Of a DNA stretch of 64,000 nucleotides, positions 8,303 to 64,000 are shown one piece after another. Origin of the DNA: an uncultured Planctomycetaceae bacterium (GTDB lineage: Bacteria; Planctomycetota; Planctomycetia; Pirellulales; PALSA-1355); assembly GCA_963785305.1 (NCBI GenBank), contig CAWAUV010000005.1:224001-288000 (forward strand), in the 5' to 3' direction. Position numbers and translations under genes: made by a program. The number at the start of each line of letters is the position of its first letter. Positions within the stretch are counted from its first letter, which is position 1. The notes beneath the pieces were generated by a model. That model was given only the letters and a program-made list of their open reading frames with translations, searched no databases and was not told where the DNA came from.

Positions 8303-8329
8303 CGCCCTGTTGGATATTTCAACCGGCTG
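8303..8329. repeat. 27-bp micro-MITE (two abutting terminal inverted repeats), copy 1
   Basis: CGCCCTGTTGGATATTTCAACCGGCTG shares a 23-bp identical core with the reverse complement of 24854-24880; flanks are TCGG/TCAG. Confidence 0.6.
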
Positions 8330-24853: not shown

Positions 24854-24880
24854 TAGCCGGTTGAAATATCCAACAGGCTG
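24854..24880. repeat. 27-bp micro-MITE copy 2 with TTAA target duplication
   Basis: TTAA (24850-24853), TAGCCGGTTGAAATATCCAACAGGCTG, TTAA (24881-24884); sits on the stop codon of the beta-helix gene. Confidence 0.7.
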
Positions 24881-31622: not shown

Positions 31623-31694
31623 TGTCACCAAGCATTGTCACCAAGCATTGTCACCAAGCATTGTCACCAAGCATTGTCACCAAGCATTGTCACC
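31619..31694. repeat. Perfect 13-bp tandem repeat (GCATTGTCACCAA) x5.8 over the antiporter start codon
   Basis: Five full units and one partial unit read directly; the CAT of the first unit (31620-31622) is the antiporter ATG. Confidence 0.95.
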
Positions 31695-32042
31695 GCGAAC
31701 AAAACCTTCCGCTGGCCGCTTCACCCGTTAAATTCGAAATTCACGATGCGGCCGTAATTCGATGGGCAGTATTGAACAATCGTCGCCGGCGCGAGTTCGC
31801 GGCCAGGACGACCCGCTTTCACGCCTTGGGCTCCCGTCGATCAACATAGCCCAGAAGGCGATGGATGAAAACACCCCGACTTGGGCGGGCCAGGCGAGTG
31901 ACCCGCCCAAGCCGTAGGGCGCACCACTGGCTAGGCGGAAGCCAGAGTACGTAAGGTTTGCGTTGGTGTGTCGTTCCGAGAAAACCAAGCAGTCACGGGC
32001 TTGGACGACTTCGCGATCGGATGAACACGGAGCGCGAAGGCG

Positions 32043-41462: not shown

Positions 41463-41587
41463 GCACCGAGCACGTGCTCGAAGGCTTCGTAATGCGCGTC
41501 GTTGCGGAATATCTTGGCCCGGGAAGTCGCTCGATTCAGGGCATGGTAGACGCCGCCAGCTTCGTCGGCTCGTGGTGGTTGTGGCAT
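41463..41587 (-). pseudogene. N-terminus of a RAYT/Y1 HUH transposase, truncated by IS66 (absent from the ORF track)
   Basis: My translation: MPQPPRADEAGGVYHALNRATSRAKIFRNDAHYEAFEHVLG, matching the MPRxxR..GxxYHxxNRG..IF..DYxxF start of REP-associated tyrosine transposases. Confidence 0.8.
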
Positions 41588-41594
41588 GGCCGCC

Positions 41595-41623
41595 AGCCTA
41601 CCAACAACCGCCAGCAAAATCAA
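41595..41623 (-). promoter_or_regulatory. Probable promoter of the RAYT-like gene; its -35 lies inside the 28-bp site
   Basis: TTGATT (41623-41618), 17 bp, TAGGCT (41600-41595) preceded by TGG, then 7 nt to the ATG (leaderless). Confidence 0.55.
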
Positions 41624-41628
41624 TGATT

Positions 41629-43564
41629 ATCGCGGTAGGGATGGCCCTTTCGGGCCACCCCCCGCACAGATCCGTACGTGCGGAACTACCGCATACGGCT
41701 CCTACCTTGGATACAAACGACCAAACCGCACTTCGGGATAAGGATGCAGGATTTTCGGGGTGGGAAGCCATCGTTTGCAAAGCTGCGAGAACTTCCGCCA
41801 GGTCATCCGGCGTCCGCGTTGGCTGCGTCGCCGCAGCATGCGGAGCCAGAGTTTCTGGAAGCGCCGTGCGGAATTGTTGCAATCGCACCGAGTTGCCGGG
41901 AATCGCATGGTAATTGAGCCATCCCCGGTAAACGCTCGATAGCCATGGCCCGACTTGCGCCAAGTCCATGTGCATTTTCCCGCGCAGCGCTTCTTTCAGT
42001 TCGCGCAGTTTGCCACGAAACTTCTTGGCCGATGAGATGCGGCGAATGGTGAATTCGCCCTTCCGGGTCACGCCACTGATGTGGGTGAAGCCCAGGAAGT
42101 CGAATGTCTCCGGTGGGCCATCGCCACGCTTCGATCGTCGTTCGGCCGCATAGCGTCCGAACTCGATCAGCCGCGTCTTCTCCGGGTGCGGTTCCAAACC
42201 GAATTTGGTGAAGCGTTCCCGGAGCGCCGCCAGGCAGCGTCGCGCGTCGGACTCCTCGCGGAATCCGACTACGAAATCGTCCGCATAGCGCACGATGATG
42301 ACCTCGCCCACGGCATGGCGTTTCCGCCACGCCACCAGCCACAGGTCCAGAACATAGTGCAAGAACACGTTCGAATAGAGCGGCGAAATCACCGCTCCTT
42401 GAGGTGTTCCCACGGTGCTCGGGGACCATTCGCCATCTTCCGACACTCCGGCTCGAAGCCATTTCTTCAGCAGCCGAAGCAGTCGTCGGTCGGCGATCCG
42501 ATGCTCCAGGAACTTCATCAACCATGCGTGGTCGATGTTGTCGAAGAAGCCGCGGATGTCCGCATCCAAAATCCAGTTCACTTTCCGCTTCTTGATGCCC
42601 ACGTAGAGCGCGTCCAAGGCTCGGTGACAGCTTCGTCCAGGACGAAAGCCGTAACTGAAACCCAGAAAGTCCTCTTCGTAGATGCACTCCAGGATCGTCC
42701 GTACGGCTTGCTGGACGATCTTGTCCTCCAGCGCCGCGATCCCGAGGGGCCGCGGCTTGCCGTCGAGCTTGGGAATCCAAGTTCGCTTGGACGGCCTGGC
42801 TCGATAGGCTCCCCGATGGATTCGACTGTGCGGATCGTCGATCCGCGTTTCGAAATCGGTGGCGTATTGAGCCCATGTCAGGCCATCGACGCCGGGCGCG
42901 GCTTGCTTCTTCAGGTCGAAGAAACTCGCCACCAGCAGTTCGGGCGTGACATGGTTCAGCAGATTGTTGAACCGCATCTTCTTGTCGCGTTGTGCCGCTT
43001 CTCGCACGCCCAGCAGTCCGCGCGGACCTGGGAGCCCGGCGTGTGTCCGGTCCAGTAGCGACTGCTCGGCGTTCTCCTCGGTCAGCTCCCTTCCCTCCAC
43101 GGGCTCCGCCGACAGCGGCACGCTGTCGTTGTTCGCCTGCTTCTTTGGTACTATGGAACTGTCTGACTCCCCGGGAACGTGCATGTCGGACTTGTGGCCT
43201 CGCGCCTTCTCCGACCGATCCGCTTCAAGCGAAGCGGATGTTCCCGGGATCTCCCGGCTTCCGCGAGAAAAGTTTCCGGCCGTGCGGGTGGTCCCGGACT
43301 CCGTGGGGGAGACGTCGGACTCGCCATGATCGTTCGACATCACTGTTGCCTTCCCGCATGAATCGAGCGACGGGGTCAGGACAAGGTCGGCCGCCACAAA
43401 AGAATGTTTTCGGAGCTCGATACACCGCCCGGCCGTGCCTCTGTGAACGCTTCGCCCTGCCAGTTGCCCGACACGACGCATCACTCGAGGCCGAGGTGGC
43501 TGGCTAGGCCTTGCCTCGTGCGACTCTTTCATTCGCGACTCTCCTCCGGCTTGTGCCGGCGCAC
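41629..43564 (-). mobile_element. Group II intron copy 1 (bacterial class E-like, IEP without endonuclease domain)
   Basis: 5' GTGCG; domain V/VI GGAGCCGTATGCGGTAGTTCCGCACGTACGGATCTGTGCGGGGGG...CCCTACCGCGAT; RT ORF inside. Confidence 0.95.
41702..43184 (-). CDS. ltrA: Group II intron reverse transcriptase/maturase (frameshift at about 41860)
   Basis: RPLGI, SYGFRPGR, DIRGFFD, GTPQG, RYADDF, FDFLGF; ends ILHPYP with no HNH domain. Confidence 0.9.
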
Positions 43565-43581
43565 CCTGACCCCTTTGAATT

Positions 43582-43705
43582 CGCCCGGTCTTGCCGGTGA
43601 TTTGCTTTTGCCGATTGTAGGTTTGCATGACTTGGTCGGAGCCGCTGACGCTGTCGGGATAGATCGTGGCGCTGAGCAAGCCGTTGCTGGCGATCGACGA
43701 TTGCG
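43582..43705 (-). pseudogene. Short Rhs core stub cut at site A
   Basis: SSIASNGLLSATIYPDSVSGSDQVMQTYNRQKQITGKT is homologous to about 60300-60420 of the large Rhs. Confidence 0.8.
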
Positions 43706-46444: not shown

Positions 46445-48379
46445 ATCGCGGTAGGGATGGCCCTTTCGGGCCACCCCCCGCACAGATCCGTACGTGCGGA
46501 ACTACCGCATACGGCTCCTACCTTGGATACAAACGATCAAACCGCACTTCGGGATAAGGATGCAGGATTTTCGGGGTGGGAAGCCATCGTTTGCAAAGCT
46601 GCGAGAACTTCCGCCAGGTCATCCGGCGTCCGCGTTGGCTGCGTCGCCGCAGCATGCGGAGCCAGAGTTTCTGGAGCGCCGTGCGGAATTGTTGCAATCG
46701 CACCGAGTTGCCGGGAATCGCATGGTAATTGAGCCATCCCCGGTAAACGCTCGATAGCCATGGCCCGACTTGCGCCAAGTCCATGTGCATTTTCCCGCGC
46801 AGCGCTTCTTTCAGTTCGCGCAGTTTGCCACGAAACTTCTTGGCCGATGAGATGCGGCGAATGGTGAATTCGCCCTTCCGGGTCACGCCACTGATGTGGG
46901 TGAAGCCCAGGAAGTCGAATGTCTCCGGTGGGCCATCGCCACGCTTCGATCGTCGTTCGGCCGCATAGCGTCCGAACTCGATCAGCCGCGTCTTCTCCGG
47001 GTGCAGTTCCAAACCGAATTTGGTGAAGCGTTCCCGGAGCGCCGCCAGGCAGCGTCGCGCGTCGGACTCCTCGCGGAATCCGACTACGAAATCGTCCGCA
47101 TAGCGCACGATGATGACCTCGCCCACGGCATGGCGTTTCCGCCACGCCACCAGCCACAGGTCCAGAACATAGTGCAAGAACACGTTCGAATAGAGCGGCG
47201 AAATCACCGCTCCTTGAGGTGTTCCCATGGTGCTCGGGGACCATTCGCCATCTTCCGACACTCCGGCTCGAAGCCATTTCTTCAGCAGCCGAAGCAGTCG
47301 TCGGTCGGCGATCCGATGCTCCAGGAACTTCATCAACCATGCGTGGTCGATGTTGTCGAAGAAGCCGCGGATGTCCGCATCCAAAATCCAGTTCACTTTC
47401 CGCTTCTTGATGCCCACGTAGAGCGCGTCCAAGGCTCGGTGACAGCTTCGTCCAGGACGAAAGCCGTAACTGAAACCCAGAAAGTCCTCTTCGTAGATGC
47501 ACTCCAGGATCGTCCGTACGGCTTGCTGGACGATCTTGTCCTCCAGCGCCGCGATCCCGAGGGGCCGCGGCTTGCCGTCGAGCTTGGGAATCCAAGTTCG
47601 CTTGGACGGCCTGGCTCGATAAGCTCCCCGATGGATTCGACTGTGCAGATCGTCGATCCGCGTTTCGAAATCGGTGGCGTATTGAGCCCATGTCAGGCCA
47701 TCGACGCCGGGCGCGGCTTGCTTCTTCAGGTCGAAGAAACTCGCCACCAGCAGTTCGGGCGTGACATGGTTCAGCAGATTGTTGAACCGCATCTTCTTGT
47801 CGCGTTGTGCCGCTTCTCGCACGCCCAGCAGTCCGCGCGACCTGGGAGCCCGGCGCTGTGTCCGGTCCAGTAGCGACTGCTCGGCGTTCTCCTCGGTCAG
47901 CTCCCTTCCCTCCACGGGCTCCGCCGACAGCGGCACGCTGTCGTTGTTCGCCTGCTTCTTTGGTACTATGGAACTGTCTGACTCCCCGGGAACGTGCATG
48001 TCGGACTTGTGGCCTCGCGCCTTCTCCGACCGATCCGCTTCCGGTGAAACGGATGTTCCCGGGATCTCCCGGCTTCCGCGAGAAAAGTTTCCGGCCGTGC
48101 GGGTGGTCTCAGACTCCGTGGGGGAGACGTCGGACTCGCCATGATCGTTCGACATCACTGTTGCCTTCCCGCATGAATCGAGCGACGGGGTCAGGACAAG
48201 GTCGGCCGCCACAAAAGAATGTTTTCGGAGCTCGATACACCGCCCGGCCGTGCCTCTGTGAACGCTTCGCCCTGCCAGTTGCCCGACACGACGCATCACT
48301 CGAGGCCGAGGTGGCTGGCTAGGCCTTGCCTCGTGCGACTCTTTCATTCGCGACTCTCCTCCGGCTTCGCGCCGGCGAC
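46445..48379 (-). mobile_element. Group II intron copy 2
   Basis: Nearly identical to copy 1. The 5' end reads GTCG, with one G missing (possible sequencing error). Confidence 0.95.
46518..47999 (-). CDS. ltrA: Group II intron RT/maturase, intact
   Basis: Uninterrupted ORF MHVPGESD...RYADDF...ILHPYPEVRFDRLYPR; start codon is inferred. Confidence 0.9.
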   Translation of the reverse strand: MHVPGESDSSIVPKKQANNDSVPLSAEPVEGRELTEENAEQSLLDRTQRRAPRSRGLLGVREAAQRDKKMRFNNLLNHVTPELLVASFFDLKKQAAPGVDGLTWAQYATDFETRIDDLHSRIHRGAYRARPSKRTWIPKLDGKPRPLGIAALEDKIVQQAVRTILECIYEEDFLGFSYGFRPGRSCHRALDALYVGIKKRKVNWILDADIRGFFDNIDHAWLMKFLEHRIADRRLLRLLKKWLRAGVSEDGEWSPSTMGTPQGAVISPLYSNVFLHYVLDLWLVAWRKRHAVGEVIIVRYADDFVVGFREESDARRCLAALRERFTKFGLELHPEKTRLIEFGRYAAERRSKRGDGPPETFDFLGFTHISGVTRKGEFTIRRISSAKKFRGKLRELKEALRGKMHMDLAQVGPWLSSVYRGWLNYHAIPGNSVRLQQFRTALQKLWLRMLRRRSQRGRRMTWRKFSQLCKRWLPTPKILHPYPEVRFDRLYPR

Positions 48380-48468
48380 CCTGACCCCTTTGGATTGTCA
48401 GGAGCAGTCGGTGCGGCGAGCAATATGACGATGATGCTGACGCTTGGCTGACGCAATCGCACATTATT

Positions 48469-48987
48469 TCATTGTTGCCAGACAACTTCTTCATGCAGCG
48501 GCACGATCGCGGCATATTCACTACGGAAGATTGGAAGTTGCTCATTCAAAAACCAAACAAGGCCACCATAGGAGGACGCGTCCAGGCCGATCGATCCGCC
48601 GGTAGAAAAGTCAATTAGAAGCCCGCCGAGTTTCTTAGTATTGCCTTGCTCAAAGGTAGTCACTTTCGTAACCCTGGGGGGCGCGTCATCCAAATTCTTG
48701 CGATAGCAAACGTTCTCAAAAATTCGCATTAGTCCAGTGCGACAATCTGGATATTCCTTTCTGGCCCAAGCGGACCACTCGCTCAGTAACAATCGCTCAC
48801 ATGAAATATCTTCACTGCCAATAGGTTGGCGCAATACTACACAACTGTCATCGAAGCAGAAAATGACAGGGCCGCCTTCAAGCTTTGCCCATCGCTCCGT
48901 GGGATCATCGGACAATGCTTCAATTGCCATGTACACGTCGGTAATCGGTTGCTCTTTCAATGTCTCGATAAAAGTATTTATGCTCAT
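48469..48987 (-). CDS. Putative immunity protein for Rhs-B tip 1
   Basis: AT-rich; ATGA overlap with the toxin stop codon. Confidence 0.7.
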   Translation of the reverse strand: MSINTFIETLKEQPITDVYMAIEALSDDPTERWAKLEGGPVIFCFDDSCVVLRQPIGSEDISCERLLLSEWSAWARKEYPDCRTGLMRIFENVCYRKNLDDAPPRVTKVTTFEQGNTKKLGGLLIDFSTGGSIGLDASSYGGLVWFLNEQLPIFRSEYAAIVPLHEEVVWQQ

Positions 48988-50537
48988 GTTTTTGGCCTCA
49001 AACGCTGAATCATGTCGAACGTGCTACGTTGCACTGATATTAATGCGCCATCAGTGCCTCGGAGTAGAGTAAATCCGCCCCCTTCGAACACCTCAAAGAC
49101 TTGCCCTGGCCTAGCAGGGTCGAGATAGAGTCCTTTTGCCTTGAGCGTTCCATTCTGGATCTGTTGTTCCCAACCACGGAGCACAGCCGCCGTTCCTTCG
49201 GGCGTCTTAAGTTTGGTGTCAATCTTAGTTCCCGTGAGTTCTTCAAGAAACTGCTTCGCTCGTCCACCATGCGACTGCTGGTCAAAATTCTTGCTGGCTT
49301 TTAGGGTAACAGTGTTTGCCACATTACTTGGAGCATTCCCCTCCGCCGCGTTTACACCTGGGCTGGCGAGTTTATTTGGTGTCTCCGGACCGACGAGCGG
49401 ATCAAAGGCGGGGATCGTCCCTTTCGCGAAGCCCGATGCCATTATCAGCGCGTCGTCAAGGTTGCCGCGGCCTGATCGGGTGGGGTCGAGCATCAACGCC
49501 ATCGTGCCGACAACCGCGCCTTGCGATGCCAACACGTTCGCGTCGCGACGCATCCCCATCCGCGCGATCGATTTTCCATACTCCGCCGCAGCATTCCCGC
49601 CTTTAACATACACCGTATTCGGATTGTTTTCATAGGCCCGAACGAAACCGGCGCCGGCCTCATCGGGCGAAACCGCGACGATCGAGGGCTGAGTGCTCAA
49701 AAACGCCTTGTAATCCGCCGCCTTCTTCATCGCGCCTTGCAAAAACGCCGGCGCGGTCGGCGCCAAGCTAAGCACGCTCGGTGACGGATCAGTGCTGTAT
49801 CGTTCCGCGGGCGGCAGCGAATTGAACCAAGTGGTGAATTTTTCCTCGAAATCAAGCGATTGATTAATGTAGTCGGTCAGTTCCTTCGCTTGCTGCTCGC
49901 CGAATTCGCCCGGCGTGAGGATCGATAAATACTCGCGCCCGATTCGTTCCCATTCCGCGTTGAACCGCTCCTCGCGACTCGGAGCGTTCGCGTAGGGTTC
50001 CAACCCTTCGGGATCGACCTCGTTCGTCGGGCTGTTGCCGAACGCGCGGTAGGTGTTGACATCCGCTTGCGCCGGATCCGGCGTGTTCCAGGTTCCGCTC
50101 GACGGATCGTATACCCGGTTCACGGCGAAGTCGTCGCCGGTGGTGGCGTCGGTGAACAGGCCGTCGTAGCCGAAGGCGACGTCGACCGCCGCGGGATCGA
50201 GGGCCGTGTGGCTAACCGGCTGGCCGGCTGGCCGAAGGCGTTGTAGGTGATGTGGTCTTCGATCGCGCCGCTCGAATCGATCGTGTCGCGCACCGTGTTT
50301 TGGCCGTCGTCGAGCGTCCACAAGATGTTGCCGGGCGTGCTCGGGTCGGTGACTTGCTCGTCGGCCAAAAGCTGATCGACCGCGGGTCCCCACAAATAAC
50401 GATCGGTGAGATTCGCCGCGCTGGGCGCGGAGCGCTCGCGCCATCGCCGGTGGTCTGGAACTGGAACACGGCTTGGCGTCCGCCAGCGGAGCCGCTATCC
50501 GGCGGGTCGTCGAAGATAAAACGCTGTCTGCTCGCGA
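48984..50537 (-). pseudogene. Orphan Rhs (family B) fragment + conserved post-cleavage domain + variable tip 1 (48984-49327)
   Basis: RYLWGPAVDQLLADEQ, NRVYDPSSGTWNTPDP, GNSPTNEVDPEGL; duplicated at 61531-62732. Confidence 0.9.
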
Positions 50538-50559
50538 GTCAAACACCGGTTATCAGTTA

Positions 50560-50587
50560 AATCAATGACTCCTGACCCCTTTGGATT
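50560..50587 (-). repeat. 28-bp site C (intron-free)
   Basis: AATCCAAAGGGGTCAGGAGTCATTGATT, at the junction of the Rhs-B module and truncated hypD. Confidence 0.95.
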
Positions 50588-51440
50588 GTTTCAAGGCAGC
50601 CCGCTCGAGAGCAAGGCCCGCGGGGCCGATGTGCGCATCGTGTATTCGCCGCTCGACGCGCTGCGCATCGCCAAGCAAAACCCGGAGCGTGAGGTCGTGT
50701 TCTTCGCCATCGGCTTCGAGACCACCGCGCCGAGCACCGCGATCACGTTGCTGCAAGCGCGGGCCGAGGGCGTCATGAACTTCAAGGTCTTCTCGAACCA
50801 TGTCACGATTCTGCCGGCGATTCGCGCGATTCTCGATTCGCCCGACATGCGGCTCGATGGCTTCGTGGGGCCGGGCCATGTGTCGACGGTCATCGGTTGC
50901 CGTCCCTATGAGTTCATTGCCCGCGACTATGGCTGCCCGATCGTGGTGTCGGGGTTCGAGCCGGCCGATATCCTGCAGTCGCTGGTGATGATCTTGCGGC
51001 AGCTTCGCGCGGGCCAAGCGCGGGTCGAGAATCAATATGCCCGCGTCGTTCCCTGGGATGGCAATCGCGCGGCGCTCGAGGCGCTGGCCGAAGTGTTCGA
51101 AGTCCGCCCGCATTTCGAGTGGCGCGGGCTGGGATTCATTTCGCAATCGGCGCTGCGAGTGCGACCGGCGCTCGCCGCCTGGGACGCGGAACAAACGATG
51201 CCGATCCGGGGCGTGGCGGTGGCCGATCCCAAGGCGGCCCAGTGCGGCGAAGTGCTCAAGGGCGTGCTCAAGCCACATCAATGCAAACTGTTTGGCAAGG
51301 AATGCACGCCGTCCAACCCGATCGGGGCGCTGATGGTGTCGTCCGAAGGGGCGTGCGCCGCGCATTTCAAATACGGCGCGACGCCACTCTCCCGGCCGCA
51401 CGGCCCGCCCACGCTGCTGACAGCCGAAACGACACCCTAG
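50588..51440 (+). pseudogene. hypD: HypD, 5'-truncated at site C
   Basis: ARGADVRIVYSPLDA, GFETTAP, GPGHVS, CGEVLKG...C..FG..CTP..PIGALMVSSEGAC; the N-terminal CGxH and GPGCPVC motifs are missing. Confidence 0.9.
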
Positions 51441-51456
51441 AAGAGCCTTCCATCCT

Positions 51457-52515
51457 GTGACTTCACCTACGGCCATGCAACTCCACCGCGAAGCGACGCC
51501 ATTTTACGACAAGCAAATCGACATGGCCCACGGCGCCGGCGGCGAGGCGACGCGCCGCCTGGTCGAAGGGCTCTTCTTGCCGCTGTTGGCCAACCCGGCG
51601 CTCGATCCGCTGGCCGACGCCGCGGTGCTGACCGCGCCGCCGGGCCGGTTGGCGATGACGGTCGATAGCTTCGTGGTGCGGCCGTTGCAGTTTCCCGGCG
51701 GCTCGATCGGCGAGCTAGCGATTCATGGCACGGTAAACGATCTCGCGGTCTCGGGAGCCAAGCCGCTGGCGATTGCCGTGGCCTTTATCTTGGAAGCCGG
51801 GTTGCGCACCGAAGTGCTGCGCCGCGAGGTCACGCTCCTGGCTGCCGCGGCTCGGCGATGCGGGGTGGTCGTGGCGACGGGCGACACGAAAGTGGTCGAA
51901 CACGGCAAGGCCGACGGAATGTATATCTCGACCACCGGCATCGGCTCCGTGGCAAGCCAGGCCGATCTGCGGCCGGGGCGAGTCGTGCCCGGAGATCGGG
52001 TGTTGGTTTCCGGGCCGATTGGGAATCACGGCATGGCGATCATGCTCGCGCGGGCCGAGCTCGAGATCGAGTCGGACATTCGCTCCGACACGCGCTCGAT
52101 TCTGCCGCTCACCGAAGCGCTGCTCGCCGCCTGCGGAACTGAACTGAAATGGATGCGCGACGCCACGCGCGGCGGCGTCGCCACGGTGCTCAACGAACTG
52201 GCCAGCGACTCGGGCCAGCGGCTCATGATCGAGGAAGAAGCCGTGCCGGTCGACGACGATGTGCGTGGCGCCTGCGAACTGCTGGGCCTCGATCCGCTGC
52301 AGGTAGCCAACGAAGGCCAGTTTGTCGCCGTGGTGTCGGCCTCGGCGGCCGAGCGGGCGCTCGAGGCGCTGCGGAGTGTCGCGGGCGGTGAGCGGGCTTG
52401 TTGCTTGGGCGAAATCGTCGGCGGCGCGGGGCCGCGCGTGGTAGCCAGGGCCTCCTATGGCGGGATGCGCGTCGTGGATGTGCTGCTCGGCGATCCGCTG
52501 CCCCGTATTTGCTGA
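51457..52515 (+). CDS. hypE: HypE
   Basis: MAHGAGG, DSFVV.P..FPGG.IG, GDTKVV, MRDATRGG, ANEG, C-terminal LPRIC. Confidence 0.95.
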   Translation: MTSPTAMQLHREATPFYDKQIDMAHGAGGEATRRLVEGLFLPLLANPALDPLADAAVLTAPPGRLAMTVDSFVVRPLQFPGGSIGELAIHGTVNDLAVSGAKPLAIAVAFILEAGLRTEVLRREVTLLAAAARRCGVVVATGDTKVVEHGKADGMYISTTGIGSVASQADLRPGRVVPGDRVLVSGPIGNHGMAIMLARAELEIESDIRSDTRSILPLTEALLAACGTELKWMRDATRGGVATVLNELASDSGQRLMIEEEAVPVDDDVRGACELLGLDPLQVANEGQFVAVVSASAAERALEALRSVAGGERACCLGEIVGGAGPRVVARASYGGMRVVDVLLGDPLPRIC

Positions 52516-52532
52516 CGAAAGCGGCGTGTGCC

Positions 52533-53728
52533 ATGACCGCTCGCGACCAAATCATCCGACTTCTCGCAGAGCAGTTCGCGCTGCGGAACTCGATTTCGGC
52601 CGACTATTTCCCGCGCAATTGCGAGACCTTGGCCGCGGCATGCCAGCAGATGGCCGAGCGATTTCGTCGCGGCGGACGCTTGCTCGCCGCGGGCCGCGGG
52701 CGCCATGCGACCGATGCTCAGCATGTTTCGGTCGAGTTCGTGCATCCGGTGATCGTGGGCAAGCGAGCGCTGCCGGCGCTCGACGTATCGGCCGATCCGG
52801 AGCGAATGCTCGAATCGCTCGCCCGTCCAGAAGATATCGTAATGGGCTTTGCCCCACCCGAGGGCGACGCTCGCTTTGCCGAACTTTTTGCCCGCTTGGC
52901 CCGGCGAGGCGCGTTCACCTGTTTATGGTCGAGCCATTTGGGCGACGCGCCGCTTCCGGCGCCCAGCGACGATGCGTGGGTGCATCAAGAGCTCGTCGAA
53001 GTGATGTATCACACGCTCTGGGAAAGCGTGCATGTATTTCTCGAACTTGAAGGCGCCTGCCGTCCCTGTGGCGAGGACCTTGGCGCCGCGAGCTTTCTTT
53101 ATCCTTTTCTCGGCGCGAAGACCGAAGCCGCGGACTCTGCGCGCGGGTCGACGTGGCTCGATCGATTTGCCAGAAAGCGCGCGATGATGAACGTCTTCGC
53201 TCGCGATTCGCCGCCGAGCAATCCGGCCCGTTCGCCGACGCCGCGATCGCCATGGCCCGGCGCGTCGACGCGGGCGGCGCGCTGTTGGTATTTGGCAATG
53301 GCGGCTCGGCGACCGACGCCAACGATTTCGTGCTCGATTGCGTTGCCAGTTCCGAGGGTTCGCGGCCGATTCCCGCGATTTCATTTTCGGCGGAGCCGGC
53401 CGTGTTGAGCGCCATCGGCAACGATGTGGGCGTCGAGCTGATGTTCTCGCGGCAATTGATCGCCAACAGCCGGCCGGGCGACGTGGTGGTGGCGATCTCG
53501 ACCAGCGGCGCCTCGCGCAATATCGCCGCCGCGCTCGTGGAAGCGCGCAAGCGCGGCCTGCTTACCGTGGGGCTGGCCGGCTACGAGGGTGGAGACTTTG
53601 TTCGCGAAAAGCTCGTCGACCATGCGCTCGTCGTGCATTGCGATTACATTCCGCGGATTCAAGAAGTGCAGGCCTCGATTTACCATGTGCTGCGGCGGGC
53701 GATCGATTTGGCGCGACGTGGGCCTTGA
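52533..53728 (+). CDS. Tandem SIS-domain (GmhA-like) protein of the hyp cluster (frameshift at about 53145)
   Basis: TDAQHVSVEFVHPVIVGKRALPA; FGNGGSATDA, AIGNDVG, ISTSG, IPRIQE. Confidence 0.8.
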
Positions 53729-53745
53729 GGGCGAAAGGGGCGCGG

Positions 53746-56148
53746 ATGCGAGTATCGGCATCGGTCGACGATTCCTTCGCCCGCGATGCGCCCATCGCCC
53801 GGCGCGTTTCGATTCGCGGCGTGGTCCAGGGCGTGGGCTTTCGGCCTTTTGTCCATCGCGCGGCATGCGAGCATCGGATCGTGGGATGGGTCATCAACGA
53901 CCGCCGCGGTGTCGAGATTCATGCCGAAGGGTCACCCCACGCGGTCGCGGCCTTTATCGAAATCTTGAAGCAAAGCCCGCCGCCCGCCGCGCGCATTGCC
54001 TCGCTTGCCTGCGACGCCGCGCCGCTCGAGGGGTTCGTCGACTTCACGATTCGGGCGAGCGACGATCGTGGCCAGCCCACGGCTCGCGTGTCGCCCGATC
54101 TGGCCGTGTGCGAGGACTGCTTGCGGGAACTGTTCGATCCCAAGGATCGGCGGCAAGGCTACCCCTATTCGAATTGCACGCATTGCGGCCCGCGCTATTC
54201 GATCGTGTGCCGCTTGCCTTATGATCGGGCGAACACGACGCTTGCATCGTGGCCGCTGTGCGACGCCTGTCGCGCGGAATACGAAAATCCACTCGACCGC
54301 CGGTTTCATGCCCAACCCACGGCCTGCGCGGCTTGCGGCCCGGGATATGAACTGGTCGATTTCCAGAACCGGCCCTGGAAGAGCGGGGGTGATGAAACCG
54401 CCGTCGGGCGGATCGAACGGGCCAGTCTCGCGAGCAGCCGCGCGATCGCTCGCGCCGCCGAGCTTTTGCGCGGGGCGCCATCTTGGCGATCAAAGGCGTT
54501 GGTGGTTATCACTTGGCTTGCGACGCCGCCAATCGCGCCGCGATCATCGCGCTGCGAGAGCGCAAATTTCGCAAGGAAAAGCCGTTTGCGCTCATGGCCC
54601 GCGATCTCGCGGCGGCGCGAAGGATCGCGGCGCTCACGGCCGAGCACGAGCGCTTGCTGGTCGATCGGGCCAAGCCGATCGTGCTTGCTCCCTCCCGCGC
54701 AACCGCGGGCCGCGAGATCGTGTTCGACGCGATCTCGCCCGAGACCGACGACCTTGGCGTGATGCTACCCTACGCGCCGCTGCACTATTTGCTCTTCGCG
54801 GCCGGCGCTCCATCCGTGCTGGTGATGACCAGTGGCAATCGCTCCAGCGAACCGATCGCTTTCGACGATCTCGACGCGCGGGAGCGGCTTTCGGGCATCG
54901 CCGACGCCCTGCTTCGTGGCCAGCGACCCATCGCGCGGCGAGTTGAAGATTCGGTCGTCATGGTGCGCGACGGGCAAATGACCCTGGTTCGCCGCGCCCG
55001 GGGCTATGCGCCGGCGGCCGTTTGCCGGCTGGAGTCGGATCGACCCGTCCTCGCGCTCGGCGCCGATTTGAAAAGCGCCGTGGCGCTGGTGATCGATGGC
55101 GAGGCGCTCGTCGGTCCCCACTTGGGCGATTTGGATGATGCCGGCGCCTTCGCGGCCTTCGAACGCTCGGTGGCGGATTTGCTGGCAATGGCCGAACTGC
55201 GGCCCCAGGATTTGGTCGTGGCTCATGACATGCACCCGCAGTATCGCTCGAGTCGCCATGCCCGGGGACTCGCGGCGGCGCGGCTTGTGGCGGTGCAGCA
55301 CCATGAAGCGCATGTGGCGAGTGTGATGGCGGAGCATGGCCTGCTTGATGAGCGAGTGGTGGGGGTGGTATTCGATGGCGCGGGCTATGGCCGCGATGGC
55401 GCGATCTGGGGCGGCGAGTTCTTCGTCGGCAGCGTGAGCCGCGGCCTGGAACGCGTCGCATGGCTGCGGCCGACTCCGATGCCCGGCGGCGACGCCGCGG
55501 CTCGCTTTCCGGCTCAAGCCGCCGCCGGCTTCGTGGCCGATGCGGCCGCGTGCGCCGAATCGTGGCCGAGCGATTTACCATTGGCCGAAGCGATCGCCGG
55601 TCCGCCATTTGGCCTGCCGCGGCGCTTCGCCGACGCGCTGGCGATCGCCCGCAAACGAGTGCGATGTTTCCCCACAAGCTCCGTCGGCCGGCTATTCGAT
55701 GCCGTGGCGGCGCTGTTGGGGTTCACGCGGCCGATCAGTTTCGAAGGGCAAGCCGCGATCTGGCTCGAGCAGCGAGCCCGCGGCATCGGACCACAGTCTT
55801 CGTATCCCTTCTCGGAGCTCGACCCGCGACGGCTCGTGGCGGCCGTGGTTCGCGATCGGATCGCCGGGCGCGACGTCGGCGAAATCGCCGCGGCGTTTCA
55901 TCAAACACTTGCCCGCGGCGCGGCGAATCGCGCGGGATCTTTGTCGAAGCCATGGGACCCGAGTGGTGGCGGTCTCGGGCGGCGTGTGGCAAAACGAGTT
56001 GCTGTGGAGGGCGTTTATGGAGTACTTCGCCGACGATCGAGAGATTTCCATTATTGCGAACCAGAGTGTCCCCTTGGGCGATGGCGGCATCGCCTTGGGT
56101 CAGGCCGCCCTGGCGGCCGCCAGCCTCCGCGCGACCGACACGACATGA
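53746..56148 (+). CDS. hypF: HypF carbamoyltransferase (frameshifts at about 54475 and 55915)
   Basis: GVVQGVGFRPFV, CxxC zinc fingers, RRFHAQP, KGVGGYHL, QHHEAH, SGGVWQN, DGGIALGQ. Confidence 0.95.
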
Positions 56149-56327
56149 TTGCGCTTACACATGTCGAGAAGTGCGAAATGCGTTTGAAAGAGCCAACGTG
56201 AACGACGACGGAGCAAGAGAGGTCGGCTCGACGATCCGCGGCAGAGGCTCGAAATCACCTTTGGTGGTGGTTTTTAACGTGCTCGCGAAGAGGCGGGAGC
56301 ATTCGGCTCGGGTTTTGCAAAACGTGG

Positions 56328-57864
56328 GTAACTGTTAAGCATTTCCTCTTTCCCGAAATTGGGTTTTCGGTCACATTGATTGGATCATGGATGATCGAGA
56401 TCGACGGATCGCCGAGTTGGAAGCGGAAATCGCCCGGTTGCAGGCGGAGAACGGAACGCTGCGCAAGCGCGTCGAGCAACTCGAACAGCAAGTCCAAAAG
56501 TTTTTGCAGCGGCGCAAGAAAACCCGCTCGGCCAGCGATGCGCGGCGTGGCGAACAGGATCGCCGCCGCAAGCAGTTTCGCAAACATCCGGGCAGCTTTC
56601 GTCCAGGGCCGCCGCCCGGCACGGTATTCATCGAACACGATGTGCATCCGCGAGAGTGTCCGCACTGTGGCGGCCGCGATCTGACCGCCACCGGCGAGTT
56701 CGAAGACCATGAGATGGCGGAGATTCCAGAGCCCAAGCTCGAATGGCATCGGTATCGCCGTCATACCTATCGTTGTGAACATTGCCAAGCCACCTGCCAA
56801 GGACGCGGCGACTTGGAACTGCCCGGCGCCCACATCGGGCCACGCGCGCGCTTGTTGGTCTGCTACGCGCGGGTTCACCTGGGCATCTCGCTCGGCAAAA
56901 CGCAACACTTGCTGAAAGACTTCTTTGGTCTTTCGGCCAGCCGGGCCGGATTGCTCGGCCATTTGCGTTGGGGCGGCGCTTTGTTCGAGCCGGTGGTCGA
57001 CAAACTCTGGGAACTCTTGCGCAATTCGCCGGTCGTGCAAGGCGATGAGACCGGCTGGCGGATCGATGGCCAGCCCGTTTGGGCCTGGTGTTTTCGAGAC
57101 ACGCGCTTGGCATTGTTCCTGATCGATCGTCATCGCAATCGGGCCGTGCTCGAGCGAGCGTTGGGCACATCGTTCGCGGGCACGCTGGTCAGCGATTTTT
57201 ATGCGGTCTACAACCGGCTCGACTGCCGCAAACAGCGCTGCTTGGTCCATTTGCTTCGCGAGTTGCACAAGCTGCGCGAGACGTTGCCGGCGGCGAGCGT
57301 GCGGGCCTTCATCCAGCCGTTGATCACGCTGTTTCAAGACGCGATCCGGTTGGGCCACGAGCGCAAGTCGCTCGGCAAAAAAGCTTTCAACGCGGCCCGA
57401 CACGAGATTCAAAACCGTTTCGACACGTTGATGCTCGAGACGCGCGTGCGGCATCGCGAATGTTTGCGAATCTGGCGGCGGCTGTTCAAGCACTCGGACG
57501 AATTGTTCACCTTCCTCGACGATGCGAATGTTCCGGCCGACAACAACGGAACCGAACGCGACATCCGAAGCCTGGCGGCGGCGAGGAATGATGGCGGCAC
57601 GCATCGGACCGAATGGAGCGCGGCGGCGTTCGCCCGAATCAAGAGCGTGATCGCGACCGGCGCGAAAAACGGTTTGAGCTTCGCAAGGTATGGAATCGAA
57701 GTCGTGCGCGCTAAATTGCAAGGCAAGACCCTGCCGCTGCCGATCACCAATAGCAGTTAAAACATCCGCCACGCGACCCATCCCCGGAAACCCCTCGCCC
57801 GCGATCCCCGCCAATATCGCCACCGCCCCCCCGCGCCCAGGCCACGCCACGGCTTAACAGTTAC
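56328..57864 (+). mobile_element. IS66-family element, single-ORF type, full length (1537 bp)
   Basis: 13-bp TIR GTAACTGTTAAGC; no target duplication visible. Confidence 0.9.
56387..57760 (+). CDS. IS66 transposase (TnpC-like)
   Basis: Coiled-coil N-terminus, CPHCG zinc finger, DETGW, LVSDFY, QRCLVHLLR, NNGTERDIR. Confidence 0.95.
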   Translation: MDDRDRRIAELEAEIARLQAENGTLRKRVEQLEQQVQKFLQRRKKTRSASDARRGEQDRRRKQFRKHPGSFRPGPPPGTVFIEHDVHPRECPHCGGRDLTATGEFEDHEMAEIPEPKLEWHRYRRHTYRCEHCQATCQGRGDLELPGAHIGPRARLLVCYARVHLGISLGKTQHLLKDFFGLSASRAGLLGHLRWGGALFEPVVDKLWELLRNSPVVQGDETGWRIDGQPVWAWCFRDTRLALFLIDRHRNRAVLERALGTSFAGTLVSDFYAVYNRLDCRKQRCLVHLLRELHKLRETLPAASVRAFIQPLITLFQDAIRLGHERKSLGKKAFNAARHEIQNRFDTLMLETRVRHRECLRIWRRLFKHSDELFTFLDDANVPADNNGTERDIRSLAAARNDGGTHRTEWSAAAFARIKSVIATGAKNGLSFARYGIEVVRAKLQGKTLPLPITNSS

Positions 57865-58160
57865 ATTTCAACGATCTCATCGAATCCATGCGGCTTTATA
57901 GTTTCGGAAACTAGACATGACAAATACGTAACACAAAGCATCACCACAAATAAACGATAAACGATTGAACCGACCCCCAATACGCCCCAGCATCCTATCA
58001 ATGCGATCTGTGCGTAGGTTATCCCATCTGCGACAAAGTCTTCGTCGCTGCCGGTGCAATCGGCGATCCGAACAACCACAAGACTTCCCAGGACGTGGAT
58101 TGTCGCAAGGCCGGCCATGACCACACAAGGCTTGGAGCACGAATGTAAAAACGACGTATT
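57865..58160 (-). pseudogene. Putative membrane immunity gene truncated by IS66
   Basis: AT-rich hydrophobic frame (AQIALIGCWGVLG) running into the IS end; start uncertain. Confidence 0.5.
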
Positions 58161-58397
58161 GCGTCGCTGCGTTTCATATGATTCGTCTGATTGTCGACTT
58201 TCGCCGACTACGATTCGCCGATGCATTGTACGTACGCCGCTTTCTACAAAACGACCAAGTTGTACGCGTCTGCAATGCATACAACATGTACTAGCATCGA
58301 TTGTTGTTGCATCTCAAACCGCACGTGTGAGGATGCCGTAAAGTGTTACGAATAAGCAATGCGCAAGCTGCTGATGGGCTACATCGAAGTGGCCTGA

Positions 58398-61300
58398 TTA
58401 TGCGCACGTGCCTTTGCATGTGCAATCGACGAGGTACCACAATGAAATATATAGCGAGTGTTCTCTGCACATATATGTGCATTCGCATGGGTCGCAATGA
58501 CCGGAGCGGGCCTCATCGTAGTAATGTTCCCAAATAGAATAGCCGCACCAATACCACACTACTTGCTTGACGTAATACGTGCATGAGCATGGCCTTTCCC
58601 ATACATATGTGTTGCCTCTATCGGCGCGCTTGCAATATGGCATTCCGTCCACCGTGTGTGGGGGATTGTCGTTCGGTGGCGAAACCTTAGATGTCGTGCC
58701 GTTCGGGTCGGTGTTTTTGGCGATAGCGTTTCCTAGGTATCGATACAGATTCCGGTCTCCACCATCATACCCGATCGGATCTCGCGTGATCCAAACGCCG
58801 TGCGCCGGATTCAAATATCGATTCCGCGCCAGATACAGCCCCGTTTCGACGTCCCAGCGGTAGCCGCAGTAGAGGGTTTCCCAGGCGTACGCGGAGCCGC
58901 TAGCGCGAACCGTGAAGTCGGGATTCAGGAATGTCGGCAAGCCATAGGCGGTGTACTGGTAGCGTTCTTCGACGGCGCCGGATGTATTGACGATCGCCGT
59001 GACGTTCCAGTTCGCGTCTTGCAGAGCGTAAAGCCTTTCCGTCGAGCGGTCGCGCAAGACCAGATCGTCGATGTAGCGTTGGCCCCACACGAATTGACGA
59101 TCGGCGGTCGTCGCGCCGCCGACGCGTTCTTCGAGGACTTGCCACATGTTCGAGTAGTACAAGTCGCGCACGATGCCGGCGACCAGTTTGGTTGTGCGGC
59201 GATTGAGGCCGTCATAGCTGTAGGCGGCCACGCCGGCGAGCGAGATCAAGCGGTTCCAGGCGTCATAGGTTGCGGCGAAAGAGCTTGCGGGCGATGCCGG
59301 TTGTGGAATTGCGGTCATGGCGCCGGTCGGACTGTAACTCGGCTGCGCCCATGCGGCGCCGTAGCGCTGGGCAATGCCCATGATCTCGTTGACTGGATTC
59401 GACACGCGCTGCTGGTCGAGGTTATTCGCGGAAGTCACGACATCCGTGTTGACGAAATTCGACCAGTTGCCCGTTGCGTCCAGGCCCCATTGCTGGGCAA
59501 GAGTCATGTTCGCGATGGACTGGTTATTATTCGTGAGGGCGCCGCGGCTCATGTCGGTGAGGCGCTGCATGCCGTCGTAGCTATACAGCTCATCGAACTT
59601 GGCGCCAAGCGAATCAGCCACGACGTTTTGCCGCCAGACGCGGTTGCTCGATTGGTCGTAGCCGTATTGGATTTGATCGAGCGTGGCGGTGGGCGTGGTC
59701 CAGGGGTTATTAATAACACGGCCAAACTGGTCGAGGCCGAGATAGGGATTCGTGCCGAAGCCGGAGCCGCCGGCTAGCGACCAGGTGACGTCCGGCTGCG
59801 GATACGTTAGATCGACGAATGTCGAGAGGCCGAGGTAGGTGTACTCGACGAGCGTCGTGCTGTCGGAATCGCGGTAGTTGGTGATGCGGGATAACGCATC
59901 GTCGTTGCCGCTCGCGTAATTGTACGAAACGACGCGAGGCGTCGAGCCGCTGATCGCGCCGGGATAGGTGATCGCCGTGAGGCGCGTCGTGTTGGCGCTG
60001 CCGTCGGCGAAGGCGTATTGCACATTGGCCGACGTGGCGGTGTTCACGGCGGCGCCATGCTGCTGGTACTGCGTGACGAGTTGCTGAAAGCCATTGTAGG
60101 CGTTTTGGACTTGATTGACCACCGTCGTCGCGCCGATGTCGGCGTAGCTCGTGATTTGGAAGACCAATCCGCGGATTTCGTAGGCGGTGCTGATCCGCTG
60201 CACGCTCGAATCGACGCTCGCGCCGAGCGTCGTAATGATGTCGTCCGTGGGGCGGCCGAGCAGGTCGAACAGGTACTCATGCACCGTGCCGTTTTGGTCC
60301 GTCTTGCCGGTGACTTGCTTTTGTCGATTGAAGGTTTGCGTGACTTGGTCGGAGCCGGACAAGCTATCGGGATAGATCGTGGCGCTAAGCAATTCGTTAC
60401 TGGCGATCGAGGAATCGGTCAAGGTCGTGCCGTAAACGAACTGCGTCGTTTGGTTGCCGGTGGTTGGATTCACCGCCGTCAAGGCGATCATGTTGCCGTC
60501 GGCGTTGTAGGCGAACTGGACCGTGACGTCGGTGGCGTTGCCGGGGCAGCCGCCGGTGTAGTTGCTCACCGTGCTGAGCGGCTTGTGCAAGGCGTTGAAT
60601 GTTTGCAGCGTGATGATGCCGGCGGGATCGGTGGTTTGATTGAGATTGCCGGCGTTGTCGTAGGCGAAGCTCCTGACCAAGACGGTTGGCGAGGAAGCTG
60701 GCGGCGTGGCGGGGGCGGTGAAGGCGGCGTTGCCATTCGTGCCGTAGTTGGCCGAGGCCGCCATGCGGCCAATGCCGTCGGGGAAGTTCGCGACATAACT
60801 TACGCGGGCCAAGGGCTGCGTTCCGCTATACGGTGGATTCAAGACGCCCGAGCTGGTGGCGCTGTCGAACTGCTGGTACGAATCGACTTCGATCACGTTG
60901 TTCGCGTCGTCGTACGTGGTCAGCGTCTGCTCGAAGATGATGTTTTGGCTCGTGACTTGGCCGACGTCGCTGTAAGGCTCCGTTCCCGAGCCGGTGTAAT
61001 AACCTTGATACGACGCCGTGACTCGGGCTTGGCTATCGTATACCTGCTTGGTGAATGTCTGGGCTCCTGCCGGCAAAGTCTTGATGATGTTGCTCGCCAG
61101 ATCGTACCAAGTATTGTCGACGAGCGAGTTGCCCAAGGCGCCGGTGTTCGGGTCCACCGAATAGACTTGCGTTTGATAGACCCGATTGCGGTCGTCCCAG
61201 AAGGTGAGCGTTCGCGCGAGAAGCTGACCGTTCGCGGTGGTGTTGAGGCGGTCGACTTGGATGATCCGATCGAGATTGTCGTAGGTCGTCTCCAGATAGT

Positions 61301-61480
61301 ATTCGAGCTCGCCGTCGATGCCGATTTGCCTATCTCGGAAGTCGTAGATGTAGCTGGTCACGCGGTCGTTCTCGCCGGTGGCGTCGACGAACGCGGTCTT
61401 TTCGGTGAGGTTGCCGTCGCCGCCCGACGAACCGCCGTCGTATACGTTGCCGGTGACTTGGACCATGTTGTTCCCCGAAC
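58398..61480 (-). pseudogene. Large Rhs (family A) protein, 5'-truncated at site D, with Cys-rich tip (58398-58694)
   Basis: About 1030 codons of YD repeats; LYLARNRYLNP..GVWITRDPIG...NTDPNGT; the frame begins abruptly at the site. Confidence 0.9.
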
Positions 61481-61508
61481 AATCCAAAGGGGTCAGGAGT
61501 CATTGATT
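61481..61508 (+). repeat. 28-bp site D (intron-free)
   Basis: GAAC|AATCCAAAGGGGTCAGGAGTCATTGATT. Confidence 0.95.
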
Positions 61509-61530
61509 TAACTGATAACCGGTGTTTGAC

Positions 61531-63058
61531 TCGCGAGCAGACAGCGTTTTATCTTCGACGACCCGGCGGACAGCGGCTCCGCTGGCGGTGGCCAGGCCGT
61601 CTTGCAGTTCCAAACCACCGGCGATGGCGCGAGCGCTCCCACGCCGACCGCGGCGAACCTCACCGATCGTTATTTGTGGGGACCCGCGGTCGATCAGCTT
61701 TTGGCCGACGAGCAAGTCACCGACCCGAGCACGCCCGGCAACATCTTGTGGACACTCGACGACGGCCAAAACACGGTCCGCGACACGGTCGATTCAAGCG
61801 GCGCGATTCAAGACCACATCACTACAACGCCTTCGGCCAACCGGTCAGCCACACGGCCCTCGATCCCGCGGCGGTCGACGTCGCCTTCGGCTACGACGGC
61901 CTGTTCACCGACGCCACCACCGGCGACGACTTCGCCGTGAATCGGGTGTACGATCCATCGAGCGGGACCTGGAACACGCCGGATCCGGCGCAAGCGGATG
62001 TCAACACCTACCGCGCGTTCGGCAACAGCCCGACGAACGAGGTCGATCCCGAAGGGCTGGAACCCTACGCGAACGCTCCGAGTCGCGAGGAGCGGTTCAA
62101 CGCGGAATGGGAACGAATCGGGCGCGAGTATTTATCGATCCTCACGCCGGGCGAATTCGGCGAGCAGCAAGCGAAGGAACTGACCGACTACATTAATCAA
62201 TCGCTTGATTTCGAGGCAAAATTCACCACTTGGTTCAATTCGCTGCCGCCCGCGGAACGATACAGCACTGATCCGTCACCGAGCGTGCTTAGCTTGGCGC
62301 CGACCGCGCCGGCGTTTTTGCAAGGCGCGATGAAGAAGGCGGCGGATTACAAGGCGTTTTTGAGCACTCAGCCCTCGATCGTCGCGGTTTCGCCCGATGA
62401 GGCCGACGCCGGCTTCGTTCGGGCCTATGAAAACAATCCGAATACGGTGTATGTTAAAGGCGGGAATGCTGCGGCGGAGTATGGAAAATCGATCGCGCGG
62501 ATGGGGATGCGTCGCGACGCGAACGTGTTGGCATCGCAAGGCGCGGTTGTCGGCACGATGGCGTTGATGCTCGACCCCACCCGATCAGGCCGCGGCAACC
62601 TTGACGACGCGCTGATAATGGCATCGGGCTTCGCGAAAGGGACGATCCCCGCCTTTGATCCGCTCGTCGGTCCGGAGACACCAAATAAACTCGCCAGCCC
62701 AGGTGTAAACGCGGCGGAGGGGAATGCTCCAAAGAGTGGACCTGTCGCAGGTGGCGGCGCGAGCCTTGAACGTGGCCTTGGAAACATGTCGGCAGCGGAA
62801 ATTTCGCGAATTCAAAACGCAGCGAATCGCATTGATAAGCCCATAAGCGTCGTTGGAAGCCGCTCGGGCGGTGCGAAACTTCCACGGCCGGACTCCGACT
62901 GGGATTTCGTGATCGAAGCGAATAACAAAGTGAGAGCTAGCGCGTCTCGGTCGCTTCCGGGAGCAAAATCTGTAACAAATAACCTTGACTGGAACCAAGA
63001 CGTTTTCAAGGGGCCGCTCGATCCCGCCCACCCACACATAACGTTCTTCCCGGAGTAG
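61531..63058 (+). pseudogene. Orphan Rhs (family B) fragment + conserved domain + variable tip 2 (62733-63058, nucleotidyltransferase-like)
   Basis: Near-identical to 49328-50537 up to ...GVNAAEGNAP; the tip contains VVGSR...PDSDWDFVI. Confidence 0.9.
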
Positions 63059-63061
63059 ACG

Positions 63062-63337
63062 ATGCGAGAAACGACAGTCGAATTATTGAACGACGAGGGT
63101 AATGGTGCGGTCCTTAAATTGCCGGGTCGCGCATTTCCTGGGATACTGATTCAAGGCGACACGCTTCAGATTCTGATCGACGACTTAGAGGAACTGCTCG
63201 ATTTGCTTGGCGCTGAGGCACTAGAGGAACCGCGTGAATCACTTGATGGCATTATTGAGCGTCTCAAAGGATATCGAACTCGCTACGTTGAGGCGCTGAA
63301 AAACCACGGGATTTCTGTGCCGTTTTCGAGCCGTTAG
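63062..63337 (+). CDS. Putative immunity protein (resembles DUF6959)
   Basis: 91 aa, 3 nt after the toxin stop; AVLKLPGRAFPGILIQGDTL. Family assigned from memory, not by search. Confidence 0.65.
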   Translation: MRETTVELLNDEGNGAVLKLPGRAFPGILIQGDTLQILIDDLEELLDLLGAEALEEPRESLDGIIERLKGYRTRYVEALKNHGISVPFSSR

Positions 63338-63616: not shown

Positions 63617-63775
63617 CTCCTGACACGGACGTCGGCTGGGTCGACAATGAAGTCACCGGCGAGGAACTGAGCGCCAACTCGTACTCGGAGGTCAGCGTCT
63701 CGTCGCAGGACGGCACGGTCACGACGGCGCCGGATTCCGGCTCCTATTCGGCGGAAATCGACGTCTCGAACGAAC
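63617..63775 (+). pseudogene. Coding-like fragment (Ser/Thr/acidic) cut at site E
   Basis: Frame APDTDVGWVDNEVTGEELSANSYSEVSVSSQDGTVTTAPDSGSYSAEIDVSNE, with host-like codon usage, ends at GAAC|site. Confidence 0.4.
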
Positions 63776-63792
63776 AATCCAAAGGGGTCAGG
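63776..63792 (+). repeat. 28-bp site E, 5' half (intron 3 inserted)
   Basis: GAAC|AATCCAAAGGGGTCAGG^GTGCG. Confidence 0.9.
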
Positions 63793-64000
63793 GTGCGCCG
63801 GCGCGAAGCCGGAGGAGAGTCGCGAATGAAAGAGTCGCACGAGGCAAGGCCTAGCCAGCCACCTCGGCCTCGATTGATGCGTCGTGTCGGGCAACTGGCA
63901 GGGCGAAGCGTTCACAGAGGCACGGCCGGGCGGTGTATCGAGCTCCGAAAACATTCTTTTGTGGCGGCCGACCTTGTCCTGACCCCGTCGCTCGATTCAT
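63793..64000 (+). mobile_element. Group II intron copy 3 (5' end; runs off the window)
   Basis: GTGCGCCGGCGCGAAGCCGGAGGAGAG..., near-identical to the 5' ends of copies 1 and 2. Confidence 0.95.

Follow-up and report, generated by a model that had tools for sequence, protein, structure and literature searches.

Apparent one-ended joining of terminal inverted repeats of a TIRYT (Y1/HUH) element to copied gene fragments in a planctomycete genome

The repeat at 50560..50591 is one of the terminal inverted repeats (TIR) of a TIRYT (Y1/HUH) element. An end is joined by itself to unrelated DNA, with the junction 16–19 nt outside TGAC and a C common to both sides. Many ends are linked to a C or the T of their own core, which re-iterates the tail. 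The window is the whole stretch of 64,000 nucleotides (G000:C5:224001-288000); G000 is the genome analysed, and C2, C5, C7, C8 and C9 are contigs of it. The assembly is 6.4 Mb in size and 84.7% complete.

Terminal inverted repeats

Ends found in the genome-wide scan number 70 and have the form CAATGAGTCC-TGACCC(C/G)-TT followed by a variable tail. The motif GGGGTCAG is present in most of them, and the variants GGTGTCAG or CGGGTCAG in many others. An exact 19-nt degenerate pattern gives 43 matches in this genome, against 0 for the reversed control, and the site is far more frequent than chance would allow. It matches just 2 of 40 relatives, being too strict because variant cores are common there.

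Five sites, A to E, lie in the window. The 28-mer at 50560-50587 and the outward tetranucleotides GTTT (C), GTTC (D and E), GTCA (B) and CGCC (A, a GAATT variant) read as an earlier note on this DNA gave them, and the five junctions it described are real. The whole site is present only at C and D; A, B and E are split by a group II intron. End C (50560..50591, plus strand) consists of an inner arm, a TGACCCC core with its T at 50573 and a tail, and is joined at 50591|50592 to the C opening hypD codon 101. End D (61478..61508, minus strand) faces C and is joined at 61478|61477 to a C within an Rhs gene. The outer half of A (43565..43585, plus strand), with a GAATT tail, is parted by the intron from the inner half and joined to an Rhs fragment at offset ~19 (donor 88% identical). 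The inner half of A and the first 41 TIRYT codons occupy 41465..41628 (minus strand) and are ended by an IS66 fragment. The outer halves of B (48380..48399, plus strand) and E (63773..63792, minus strand) are likewise intron-split, and a search of the genome finds no donor for the outer flank of either.

The imperfect hairpin proposed for site C is unstable (-0.4 kcal/mol; 186 of 200 shuffles fold at least as well). Dyad symmetry is present at the level of the family, with C-G/A-T covariation at -10/+10 over 96 distinct ends from other genomes. Pairing of own arms is 0.60 versus 0.51±0.013 for shuffled arms and 0.59 for left and right arms swapped within the element; own and swapped arms being alike, relatedness or a double-strand dyad accounts for it equally well. 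Sigma-70 promoters found in the left TIR number 0.

Transposase gene

A Y1 transposase gene is enclosed by two ends in opposite orientation. Its ATG comes ~42 nt after the left core, and its stop codon is supplied by the TGA of the right core. The element is ~750 bp long and has two full-length copies (C7:1442956-1443710 and C2:75136-75883), each with one frameshift in the assembly at a different place; five internal-deletion derivatives measure ~405 bp. At L001 and C2:75136-75883 the gene is flanked by inverted repeats, not by REPs. Comparison loci comprise 80 from GTDB and 80 from metagenomes; 78 GTDB loci entered the two-end count, and both ends are found by strict pattern in 36 of these.

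The Y1-type HUH enzyme postulated from the sequence alone is borne out. The transposase matches PF01797, and H60-W-H62 (HUH) and Y122 are invariant in 14/14 aligned proteins. The predicted structure (pLDDT 82) has the REP transposase 4ER8 as its best fold match, followed by ISDra2. The Y motif is YVERNA in most proteins and YVERNP or YVEANP in 3/14. The NF047646 score is 54–63 bits, under the 80-bit cutoff. A sister TIRYT family has GCGTCCCC ends and an open 225-aa gene in L002 (L002:1201-1878; G000:C8:339728-368223); the L002 protein has no Pfam match to Bac_DnaA_C, HTH_23 or HTH_28, and its predicted structure has three C-terminal helices of low confidence. At C8:368223/368192 a sister-family end adjoins a TGACCCC-type end.

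Position of the junction and target base

Intact donors at other places in the genome are present for 26 of 67 terminal units and lacking for the remaining 41. Junctions with identity of at least 97% and offset of at most 21 were kept (n=17). Nine of the 26 were dropped, site A (88%) among them; in four of these nine, one of the first two shared bases is a C, at offsets 17–19.

Donor sharing starts at offset 16–19 from the T of TGAC in all 17 junctions. The crossover lies 1–4 nt beyond GGATT and not directly after it. Alignment of the truncated hypD and Rhs to intact copies, a check named in the earlier note, fixes the crossover at these same offsets. The view that the site is a mobile end, with its junction at the outer edge and not at the centre, thus stands: crossovers map to the outer tip in 17/17, and none to the central GTCAGG, where a crossover would have counted against it.

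Sharing opens with C in 12/17 junctions (null mean 6.6, P=0.008), and when the second shared base is allowed as well, C is found in 17/17 (null mean 10.4, simulation P=0.0002); C-rich tails raise such counts, which the null model takes into account. Donor bases 5' of the C have no consensus over the 17 junctions, and homology past the shared C is 0–1 nt. Over 308 ends, C occurs at offset 17 in 53%, against a background of 27%. Replication of the C rule in other genomes is weak: among the fetched loci C is found in 5/9 junctions under the preset filter, which is about chance, and in 7/9 of a post-hoc set at offsets 15–17.

The tetranucleotide-directed target put forward for these ends is not recovered. 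The four bases after GGATT are unlike the intact donor in every junction (0/17 match), so that one C alone is shared. GTT follows the TTTGGATT tail in 11/15 ends and other tails in 0/55 (Fisher P=6e-10), and 9/15 TTTGGATT ends read GTTC. GTT being confined to one tail class and the four bases being unmatched in the donors, GTTC is the element's own GTT plus the shared C.

Copies of hypD and Rhs segments

The donor of the segment at end C is intact. A whole hypD is present at C5:74266-75315, 200 kb from the copy in the window. By a hand count from the probable start, the copy in the window opens at codon 101; it is without the CGGHT and GPGCPVC motifs. The site had been thought to have entered hypD and cut it; this does not hold, since an intact hypD remains and its 5' half is joined to nothing else. 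The copied region, hypD(3')-hypE-...-hypF, lies at 50592..56326 (plus strand), with its donor running from C5:75051 downward. Including IS66, window 50592-57865 equals C5:75051-67779 over 7276 bp at 99.5%, a figure that gives no date for the duplication and does not prove that the two copies share one chromosome, since nearly all differences between the hyp copies (50592-56326 versus C5:75051-69320) lie beside GCGC, which suggests motif-linked sequencing error. Given the GCGC-linked differences, frameshifts across this assembly call for caution. Read from an in-frame ATG within the TIR, the truncated hypD forms a 291-aa fusion ORF (window 50565-51440) without the N-terminal Cys motifs; a single T of a run may decide its frame, which could be due to chance.

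The segment at end D copies the 3' portion of an Rhs gene and the DNA downstream of it (57865..61477, minus strand; donor C7:1645921-1640773). Including IS66, window 61477-56328 equals this donor over 5150 bp at 99.96%. The 7.3-kb hyp copy and the 5.2-kb Rhs copy meet in one IS66 (56327..57864, plus strand), whose 8-bp flanks differ in origin, hyp donor on the left and Rhs donor on the right. In each donor the segment ends in an IS66 whose two 8-bp repeats match; those of the window IS66 are mismatched. Judged from these flanks, the window IS66 holds a crossover, either a recombinant copy or an assembly join. A third duplicated segment (C5:705818) ends at a repeat, as the hyp and Rhs segments do.

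Ends acting singly

No target duplication accompanies the ends, as the earlier note held: a repeat of at least 4 bp is found in 0/31 two-ended loci, against a shuffled mean of 2.55. Reciprocal junctions number 0/17. Every donor 35-mer upstream of a junction continues only into its own gene (17/17), and the missing 5' halves, sought at cassette cargo, do not appear there. One-ended behaviour, also suggested earlier, is upheld by these two absences together with the re-iterated tails. Two ends at C8:350665/351071 have different donors, 10 kb apart.

At L056 the left end is joined at offset ~18 to a target that is uninterrupted in G067 and G070. The element and its right flank are collinear in G073, where the left neighbour is different. 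Compared with G067 and G070, L056 has a 2.45-kb block in place of ~30 bp (a single case). A gene for a 504-aa membrane protein (L056:3760-5388) accompanies the right end of the element; G067 and G070 lack it at this position. Around L053 no empty site is found among 19 genomes, and no clean two-ended insertion is seen in this material.

Re-iterated tails occur at 17/70 ends of the genome, with 10 units beginning at C and 5 at T; the five own tandem units of 17 that begin at T have no shared C. Elsewhere such tails are found at 30/100 GTDB ends, against 0/70 in the control, and at 22/117 metagenome ends. The starts of the repeat units are variable. A 14-nt tail unit has ~19 extra copies at a GCGTCCCC-type sister-family end (C9:331997-332283, which starts in L002). 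The end at C2:75883 duplicates 181 bp of its own element. A similar tail stutter is seen at C2:50078.

Group II introns in the repeat

The introns are inserted at GGGGTCAGG|GTGCG and so divide the TIR at A, B and E. In the genome, 20/25 intron 5' ends lie within a TIR, with the inner half-site following the intron 3' end. In the window, TIR A holds an intron with RT/maturase at 41629..43564 (minus strand), TIR B one with RT/maturase (TIGR04416) at 46445..48379 (minus strand), and TIR E an intron 5' end at 63793..64000 (plus strand) that runs past the window edge. Related introns are found at TIRs of other genomes too (L048, L052 and L093). From these positions, the group II intron would home into the TIR core and use the transposon end as its homing site. 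Continued activity of intron-split half-sites, considered for C7:1629899, is not established: the 651-bp fragment there resembles other copies of the intron (99.5%) more closely than it does its neighbour (98.9%).

Proposed mechanism

The junctions are probably products of core binding, a nick at a C 16–19 nt outward, one-ended strand transfer and rescue by recombination at a repeat, with attack on a sister end giving stutter. The TIRYT enzyme would bind the conserved AGTCCTGAC(C/A)CCTTT core. At a roughly constant spacing from that core it would nick one strand at a C, in the manner of the C|T, C|A and C|C cleavages made by REP transposases. The nicked strand would then be exchanged with a C site where single-stranded DNA lies exposed. 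Replication, together with homologous recombination at a repeat close by, such as IS66, an intron or the Rhs core, would rescue the one-armed product. The outcome would be a 3'-truncated copy beside the TIR, with the donor left whole. In the window, such events would have occurred at C (hypD) and D (Rhs) and been resolved in one IS66. Attack on a sister end would produce the tail stutter. In the available text of PMC8266576, REP transposases cut C|T, one of them also C|A and, with its guide changed, C|C; they are able to transfer strands or leave a priming 3'-OH. The literature searched holds no biochemistry of any TIRYT.

Nick-primed template switching, by which the TIRYT enzyme only nicks the tail, is unlikely. 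The freed 3'-OH, ending in C, would prime synthesis and either slip back on its own template or jump to other single-stranded DNA by 1-nt microhomology, much as happens when rolling-circle initiation is left unterminated; the available text of PMC8266576 mentions priming from an HUH 3'-OH. Such a course would suit the 14-nt unit repeated ~19 extra times at C9:331997, the variable repeat starts, the intact donors and the lack of reciprocal products. Against it stands homology of only 0–1 nt beyond the C, and polymerase switching usually occurs with longer microhomology than this. Long tail runs can also arise by slippage from one duplication.

Decidedly unlikely is that the same end chemistry yields ordinary adjacent deletions or inversions, the apparent duplications coming from earlier IS66 or intron recombination or from assembly of a mixed population. 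The assembly is incomplete (84.7%), the duplicated segments end at repeats, where assemblers also jump, and many targets are multi-copy. Deletions or inversions of this kind are opposed by the absence of reciprocal junctions (0/17), by the lack of any further IS66 in the 20 kb upstream of the hyp donor, and by L056, where the one-ended join is fixed relative to other species.

An IS91-like insertion beside a GTTC/CTTG target, the reading of the earlier note, is very improbable. It is favoured by the 9/15 TTTGGATT ends reading GTTC and by the lack of target duplication, and is refuted by the donor alignments: 0/17 donors share the four bases, GTT is specific to one tail class (11/15 versus 0/55), no consensus lies 5' of the C, and the ends are inverted repeats round a Y1 gene. 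That the site is of tyrosine-recombinase or integron type, crossing over within the central GTCAGG, can practically be dismissed and is refuted for the resolved junctions. Although the site has an imperfect dyad with covariation at -10/+10 and flanks that switch at the centre in A, B and E, these central changes are group II introns, the crossovers lie at the outer tip in 17/17, and the sites flank HUH genes.

Relation to known elements

Elements of the IS200/IS605 group (IS608, ISDra2) share the Y1 fold and the lack of target duplication. They move as a two-ended single-strand circle into a guided target of 4–5 nt. The present element fits the TIRtron/TIRYT class. In the available text of PMC3733652 (Di Nocera et al. 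2013), TIRtrons/TIRYTs have a RAYT-like Y1 gene and TIRs with GGGGWSAS. The likeness to the published class comprises the GGGGWSAS-type TIR, its overlap with the gene 3' end, families of solo TIRs and a protein of ~230 aa. The element is probably of subclass 2.1 of Quentin et al. 2018 (PMC6006769); it differs from the available description of that subclass in having no Pfam HTH match and a Y motif that is mostly YVERNA, not Y---NP. In the literature searched, TIRYTs are found only in PMC3733652 and PMC6006769, whose available text holds nothing on junctions and whose supplements may list close relatives. Compared with that text, which contains no junction rule, target, mobility or chemistry, the new features here are the 16–19-nt offset, the shared C, independent ends, re-iterated tails, truncated gene copies and intron homing.

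With RAYT/TnpA-REP (E. coli 4ER8; groups 2 and 3, available text of PMC8266576) the element shares the HUH/Y1 fold and a putative cleavage beside C, away from the recognised end. It differs from RAYT/REPtrons in having no GTAG guide or foot in its ends and no stable hairpin at site C. The IS91 family (IS91, IS801, IS1294) has the targets GTTC/CTTG given in the earlier note, according to the available text of PMC13181058. GTCC also counts among the tetranucleotides that lie beside ori in this family. It resembles the element in HUH chemistry, in the lack of target duplication, which is not specific to IS91, and in one-ended events that move adjacent DNA. As described there, it has a Y2 enzyme, dissimilar ori and ter and a 4-nt target; here there are a Y1 enzyme, two like inverted ends, a 1-nt shared base and copied DNA outside the end. 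PF04986 and NF033538 (IS91 transposase) have no match in the genome, but none in control genomes either.

Significance

A tentative wider reading is that TIRYTs are one-ended DNA-joining devices and not two-ended transposons. The TIR would cut by a ruler and fuse to almost any C, and repeats would resolve the product to give duplication of gene fragments; concentrated in polymorphic-toxin loci, TIRYTs would generate orphan toxin cassettes and telomere-like stutters across Planctomycetota and beyond. In the available text of PMC6006769, the second-largest Y1 subclass is present in 14.9% of strains, and TIRYTs probably correspond to it. The element class is already known; the junction rule, the one-ended products and the intron homing were not found in the literature searched, nor was a mechanism for TIRYTs. 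Because intact donors are kept for many junctions, the cut position (16–19 nt from TGAC), the target rule (C) and the product type (one-ended, donor kept) are testable. If correct, the mechanism would mean that HUH enzymes can give rise to truncated gene duplicates and orphan Rhs modules, and it would add an end-joining enzyme that asks very little of its target.

Rhs context and minor features

Of the 70 TIR ends, 33 lie at most 10 kb from an Rhs core, a zone that makes up 6.5% of the genome. The ends may drive Rhs shuffling or may merely accumulate there. Inward of TIR C, 48469..50559 (minus strand) holds an Rhs stub, a toxin tip and a putative immunity gene. Inward of TIR D, 61509..63337 (plus strand) likewise holds an Rhs stub, here with another toxin tip and with a DUF6959 gene. 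The stub, ~540 bp long, is fused to the inner side of a C/D-type TIR in 7 genomic copies with differing tips.

At C8:330000-390000 a cluster of TIR ends lies among repeated toxin-like modules that are not Rhs and carry a VLVHN-type motif, which may mark a Hint domain. A 13-bp tandem repeat with 6 copies is present at window 31606-31707. A 34-nt AT-rich inverted repeat occupies window 8306-8339 and 24844-24877, its arms 16.5 kb apart and 85% complementary.
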